This document shows, piece by piece, positions 39,265 to 39,651 of a stretch of 64,000 nucleotides of DNA; the first letter of the stretch is position 1; every line of letters starts with the position of its first letter. The notes beneath the pieces were generated by a model. The model saw nothing but the letters and a program-made list of their open reading frames with translations, was not told the DNA's origin and did not search any database. Both the position numbers and the translations under genes were made by a program. Where the stretch lies: assembly GCF_044324785.1 (NCBI RefSeq), contig NZ_CP172127.1, one strand, 5' to 3'. This DNA comes from Escherichia coli. GTDB taxonomy: Bacteria; Pseudomonadota; Gammaproteobacteria; Enterobacterales; Enterobacteriaceae.

Positions 39265-39651
39265 TTAACGATACTTCTGGTGATAGGCGTTGCGGGTCGT
39301 TTTCAGTTGCTCTGCGGCAGCCTGCGCTTCTTTTACTTTACCTTCATTTGCCAGCTTCAGCGCGTCGTCAATCTGACCGACCAGAATATCGAAACCGTGG
39401 CGGAAGTCTTTCATTTCCGGGCTGTCCGGTGATTTGCCTTCGAGCTTCGGCGGCGTCGCTTTTTGCGCATCCAGCGCTGCGGCGCGCATCTTCGTTAACG
39501 CGTCTTTGACTTGCGCCGCGTTATCGGCTTTTTCGACCACTTTTAAATTGTCGTTGAGGGTTTCCATATTGTCTTCAAGATCAGCGGCAAACGACGCCGA
39601 ACTGAATACCAACGAGGAGACTGCAAGAATAGCTAACAGGCTTTTACGCAT
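39265..39651 (-). CDS. cybC: Soluble cytochrome b562 precursor (intact, with signal peptide)
   Basis: 128 aa; signal peptide [22 protein letters not shown], then [10 protein letters not shown]...; haem-ligand region RNAYHQKYR. Confidence 0.9.

Follow-up and report, generated by a model that had tools for sequence, protein, structure and literature searches.

An intact cytochrome b562 gene, cybC, in an Escherichia coli sequence and the 26-bp deletion that disrupts it in K-12

The cybC gene carried by the stretch of E. coli DNA analysed here (64,000 nucleotides of contig NZ_CP172127.1, assembly GCF_044324785.1; hereafter the window) is, we are highly confident, the wild-type, functional and ancestral allele of the cytochrome b562 gene. 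Intact cybC is the norm in this species, with about 93% of complete E. coli genomes carrying it, and the disrupted form is a 26-bp deletion that is confined to the K-12 laboratory lineage, as judged from 60 sampled carriers among 355. The contrast between intact cybC and the K-12 disruption has been known since 1993, and the biological weight of an intact copy is small, since a well-known gene is here simply in its usual condition.

The coding sequence, including the stop, occupies 39265..39651 on the minus strand and runs from an ATG at 39651-39649 to a TAA at 39267-39265 in the list of open reading frames, specifying the 128-residue precursor of a soluble cytochrome b562. On the plus strand the same interval has stops throughout. 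The initial annotation had described an intact gene for a full-length precursor with a signal peptide, which the reading frame, Pfam, PDB and signal-peptide evidence jointly bear out; its coordinates were exact, though it left out the strand. CybC matches Pfam family PF07361 (Cytochrom_B562) over profile positions 1-102 of 102 with a score of 117.2 bits (cut-off 30; E 5.8e-34), and a search of the PDB returned solved cytochrome b562 chains at E values of 1e-63 to 1e-76. By these sequence scores the family match lies far beyond chance.

Several features of the translation point to an exported haem protein. Residues 1-22 (39586..39651, minus strand) begin with MRK, in which two residues carry a positive charge, and continue into a hydrophobic core with a mean Kyte-Doolittle value of 2.47 and an S-x-A motif (S-F-A) at -3/-1 before residue 23. 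The 106-residue chain solved in 1APC, 1QPU and 256B begins at that same residue, with ADLEDN, which is consistent with a predicted signal-peptidase cut after Ala22. The mature protein (39268..39585, minus strand) is identical to these three structures at 104 of 106 positions in an ungapped comparison, the differences being I17V and D50G in mature numbering, and this identity argues for a four-helix-bundle fold. Both Met7 (codon at 39565-39567, minus strand) and His102 (codon at 39280-39282, minus strand) are kept; in line with established knowledge of the b562 structure, we take these residues to be the axial haem ligands. Upstream, a Shine-Dalgarno-like AAGGAAG (39658..39664, minus strand), whose last base lies 6 nt 5' of the ATG, is also kept in E. 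albertii, Escherichia spp. and Citrobacter.

By analogy with known cytochrome b562 and with Sec signal peptides, the working of the gene product can be proposed as follows. Translation would start at the ATG at 39651 behind the AAGGAAG ribosome-binding site and yield the precursor, whose 22-residue N-terminal signal peptide would direct Sec-dependent export and be removed by signal peptidase I at the bond following Ala22. The mature 106-residue chain would then fold into its four-helix bundle in the periplasm, bind a single non-covalent haem b with Met7 and His102 as ligands, and presumably serve as a soluble one-electron carrier in that compartment.

The gene is also conserved in its context and in its sequence. 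The order yjgA-pmbA-cybC-nrdG-nrdD recurs in every locus fetched, with cybC convergent with nrdDG, and the homologous stretch is annotated as "cybC: cytochrome b562" in 5,425 RefSeq genomes. The exact CybC protein of the window is already public under the name cytochrome b562: it was seen on at least 1,000 contigs, and 42,801 blocks of the assembly collection list it, which makes the V17/G50 form very common in nature. Among alleles of cybC and the adjoining genes, differences are confined almost wholly to synonymous sites (in pmbA, 43-55 synonymous against 0-4 amino-acid changes), and we therefore conclude that cybC and its neighbours are under purifying selection.

The closest described system is cytochrome b562 of the E. 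coli B lineage (PDB 256B, 1QPU and 1APC), which is the product of the same gene, with the same 128-residue precursor, 106-residue mature form and Met7/His102 ligands; the window protein departs from it in two substitutions, I17V and D50G, both conservative and natural. PDB entry 9TMP represents the full-length precursor, which CybC of the window matches over residues 1-128, signal peptide included. Hundreds of further PDB chains match at about 1e-61 and represent BRIL, a thermostabilised apocytochrome b562 that is derived from CybC and employed as a fusion partner for membrane proteins; the abundance of PDB matches is thus due to BRIL fusions. Unlike the protein of the window, BRIL is engineered and is used without a signal peptide.

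This history gives the state of the host gene some practical interest. PMC13041623 describes B-lineage expression strains as having native b562 in their periplasm and cites Itagaki & Hager 1966 for the protein, in keeping with the statement in the initial annotation that it was first characterised in other E. coli lineages. The same paper indicates that users of anti-BRIL reagents need to know whether their host makes native b562, and a host with the window allele should make it. A 2022 preprint used cybC as a pseudogene landing site (bioRxiv 10.1101/2022.09.27.509702), and the Keio cybC knockout has served as a pseudogene control (PMC6945024).

The nature of the K-12 lesion is evident from nucleotide alignment. 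In MG1655 the gene (b4236, NC_000913.3 4459488..4459855), which lies between tldE/pmbA and nrdG, is flagged as a pseudogene in the curated record and lacks 26 bp, GTGAGCAATGCGTAAAAGCCTGTTAG, that are present in the window at 39633..39658 on the minus strand. The missing segment takes in the last 7 nt of the spacer between the Shine-Dalgarno sequence and the start codon, and runs on through the ATG and codons 2-6 to the first base of codon 7; it is the sole gap in 7.7 kb of alignment between the window and MG1655. The K-12-type junction, in which AAAAAAGGAA is joined directly to CTATTCTTGC, is not present in the window, where the full 26 bp stand instead. Pairwise alignment thus found no identical intact cybC in MG1655, and the earlier statement that the MG1655 gene is a truncated pseudogene proved correct.

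Apart from the deletion, which costs K-12 the ATG and codons 2-6, the two loci are orthologous: they share the same upstream palindrome and are identical at 118 of 121 residues over the remaining part, the K-12 sequence differing by G50D, A100S and Q103K. We considered whether A100S and Q103K, which lie beside His102, had arisen by drift after inactivation, and rejected this idea because 820 genomes have the same 3' sequence, among them O157:H7 and wild isolates in which the deletion is absent.

To count carriers of the deletion we used a 50-bp junction probe (25+25 bp) spanning it, whose seeds match only where the deletion is present. The K-12 junction was found in 355 of 5,426 complete E. 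coli genomes, at 100% identity in all of them. Sixty evenly sampled carriers were all of K-12 type by strain name or by a K-12-sized genome; they include MG1655, BW25113, DH5alpha, DH1, C600, J53, MC4100, TG1, HMS174, NCM3722, S17-1 and RP437, and where the strain name is uninformative the genome is of K-12 size, at 4.5-4.8 Mb. The 26 bp are retained in about 5,070 complete genomes, of which 3,530 match the whole of a 106-bp probe centred on the segment and about 1,540 match through the 26 bp but diverge 20 nt 5' of the ATG, where an upstream intergenic element is missing. That longer probe was dropped for counting deletion carriers because K-12 deletions and palindrome-less strains both give 75% coverage. 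The ATG and following codons are also present in E. albertii, in representatives of two other Escherichia species and in Citrobacter amalonaticus. Retention in about 5,070 genomes and in outgroups marks the intact allele as ancestral and the K-12 deletion as derived. An intact cybC start is thus a quick negative marker for K-12 ancestry, and the 26-bp junction a specific positive marker for K-12 DNA.

In a separate observation, a 396-bp contig assigned to Caballeronia mineralivorans PML1(12) (NZ_AEJF01000297.1), which matches the window at 39500-39921, has the MG1655 sequence at 100% identity, the 26-bp cybC deletion included. It almost certainly entered the Caballeronia assembly as contaminating E. 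coli K-12 DNA.

Two other explanations of these results deserve consideration. The contrast between the window and K-12 could be an artefact of annotation, with the K-12 allele also functional from an alternative start, either an ATT or an in-frame TTG. The annotations do lend themselves to this view: PGAP calls a 121-residue "cytochrome b562" CDS in K-12 derivatives (for example NZ_CP043195.1), all 355 junction-positive genomes list "cybC: cytochrome b562" under the match, the K-12 frame remains open 3' of the deletion, and the A100S/Q103K allele occurs in wild strains as well. However, the deletion takes out the start codon together with the charged Met-Arg-Lys n-region of the signal peptide, leaving an open frame without an ATG. 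The start chosen by PGAP is a non-canonical ATT just 2 nt after GGAA, and the longest canonical reading frame, from the in-frame TTG, has 9 residues ahead of the cleavage site, which is too short for a signal peptide. The curated MG1655 record, as noted, flags a pseudogene. Trower 1993 is cited, in PMC13041623 and in the 2022 preprint (bioRxiv 10.1101/2022.09.27.509702), for the finding that disruption of cybC blocks expression in K strains, and PMC3446290 counts cybC with the genes whose expression is high in REL606 compared with MG1655. The idea of an annotation artefact is thus already largely refuted, and we regard it as extremely unlikely. RefSeq and PGAP name the disrupted K-12 allele a normal CDS, and annotation-based presence/absence comparisons will therefore miss the lesion.

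The gene in the window might alternatively be intact yet silent or impaired, either through the 128-bp palindrome near its ribosome-binding site or through the I17V and D50G substitutions. The palindrome ends about 8 nt 5' of the Shine-Dalgarno sequence and folds very stably, a consensus scan of 39150-39900 found no sigma-70-like promoter, and the protein does differ at two positions from the one crystallised. Yet about 72% of complete E. coli genomes carry this palindrome at the same site, and other Escherichia species have its cybC-proximal end there. As for the substitutions, Val17 is also present in the K-12 sequence, neither change touches a haem ligand, the V17/G50 protein is very common in nature, and the nearly pure synonymous character of the allele differences indicates purifying selection. 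We consider silencing or impairment very unlikely, and favour the reading that the window carries a working wild-type gene.

The palindrome itself is an imperfect one of about 128 bp (approximate boundaries ~39672..39799) that lies in the pmbA-cybC spacer directly 5' of the cybC ribosome-binding site, with a predicted RNA fold of -62.3 kcal/mol (z = -9.1). The spacer measures 183 bp in the window as against 55 bp in strain VCSW7, where the palindrome is absent. Across the 5,426 genomes a copy is present at cybC in about 3,884 and absent in about 1,540 (~72% versus ~28%), an insertion/deletion polymorphism; E. albertii and two other Escherichia species have the cybC-proximal end at the cybC site. 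Elsewhere in the genome lie additional copies with about 72% identity, for example adjoining gppA, with a median of three places per genome. Assignment to the ERIC/IRU family was rejected: against a 44-bp core based on the ERIC1R/ERIC2 primers, the local alignment score was 15, compared with a shuffle mean of 13.8, and 142 of 500 shuffles scored at least as high. No Rfam match was found at the palindrome locus at E<=1. No useful name emerged from the literature, but the element may well already have one, for example among families such as RSA described in older papers. It is conceivable, but in our judgement improbable, that the palindrome is a hitherto undescribed intergenic element, mobile or excisable and low in copy number, which influences the stability or translation of cybC mRNA and thereby gives strain differences in the level of b562.

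Two smaller hairpins flank the gene. Between the convergent stops of nrdG (39220) and cybC (39265) lies an inverted repeat with a 14-bp stem (39225..39256), whose RNA fold is -23.3 kcal/mol (z = -6.5). It was not called by a consensus terminator scan and is probably a transcript-end or terminator structure shared by the two genes and lacking a U tract. The other, a GC-rich hairpin just 3' of the pmbA stop (39811..39826) with a T run on the plus strand, was picked out as a terminator-like site in the scan; as scored, it would stop plus-strand transcription, that is, transcription antisense to cybC. Some E. coli, GCA_036248925.1 among them, carry an inserted pair of a RelE/ParE-type toxin and a RelB/DinJ antitoxin between nrdG and cybC. 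The corresponding gap of the window (39221-39264) holds no toxin-antitoxin pair, just the 14-bp-stem hairpin.

With regard to strain background, an intact cybC excludes K-12 only and carries no further phylogenetic information. The suggestion that the source is not MG1655-like nevertheless stands, on the grounds of overall identity, a leuX island of another type and the missing K-12 junction. From leuX (2642-2726, minus strand) onwards the window is collinear with K-12, and over 10 kb it is 97.1-98.0% identical to MG1655. The Clermont typing markers are not among the genes identified in the window. Beside leuX, a tRNA-Leu gene with anticodon CAA, stand a tyrosine-recombinase/integrase reading frame (about 1173-2519) and then the start of a phosphorothioated-DNA-binding restriction endonuclease, all within window positions 1-2726. 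This island start, with its integrase and phosphorothioate-sensing endonuclease, is as in E. coli W and unlike MG1655, which has an intB pseudogene and IS2K at leuX. Just 130 of the 5,426 genomes cover 80% or more of the leuX-adjacent 3 kb.

Over 24-kb stretches, identity to the window does not exceed about 97.5-98.3% in any of the 5,426 RefSeq complete E. coli genomes. ValS, TamB and YjgR each have exact matches on about 300 contigs, with shared accession series, and one of the assemblies concerned, the draft GCA_044079815.1, is 99.991% identical to the window over 22.8 kb. We rejected the possibilities that the window was artificially recoded or comes from another Escherichia species, given that its differences are overwhelmingly synonymous, that other Escherichia species are 90-93.5% identical to it, and that the draft matches it so closely. 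The comparisons point to a natural E. coli lineage that is represented by drafts and has no close relative among the 5,426 complete genomes.

Eleven window proteins were looked up in a collection of 15 billion proteins, and the sole one without an exact match is a 625-residue reading frame at 21840-23717 on the minus strand, a region annotated yjgL in relatives. The mismatch may reflect the choice of start codon, or this could be a strain-specific variant. Finally, comparison of window positions 39265-41187 with GCA_036248925.1 shows cybC DNA that is 100% identical next to a pmbA that is 2.7% different (36 synonymous changes and one amino-acid change), a pattern that suggests mosaic ancestry, the recombination breakpoint lying within the pmbA-cybC spacer or close to it.
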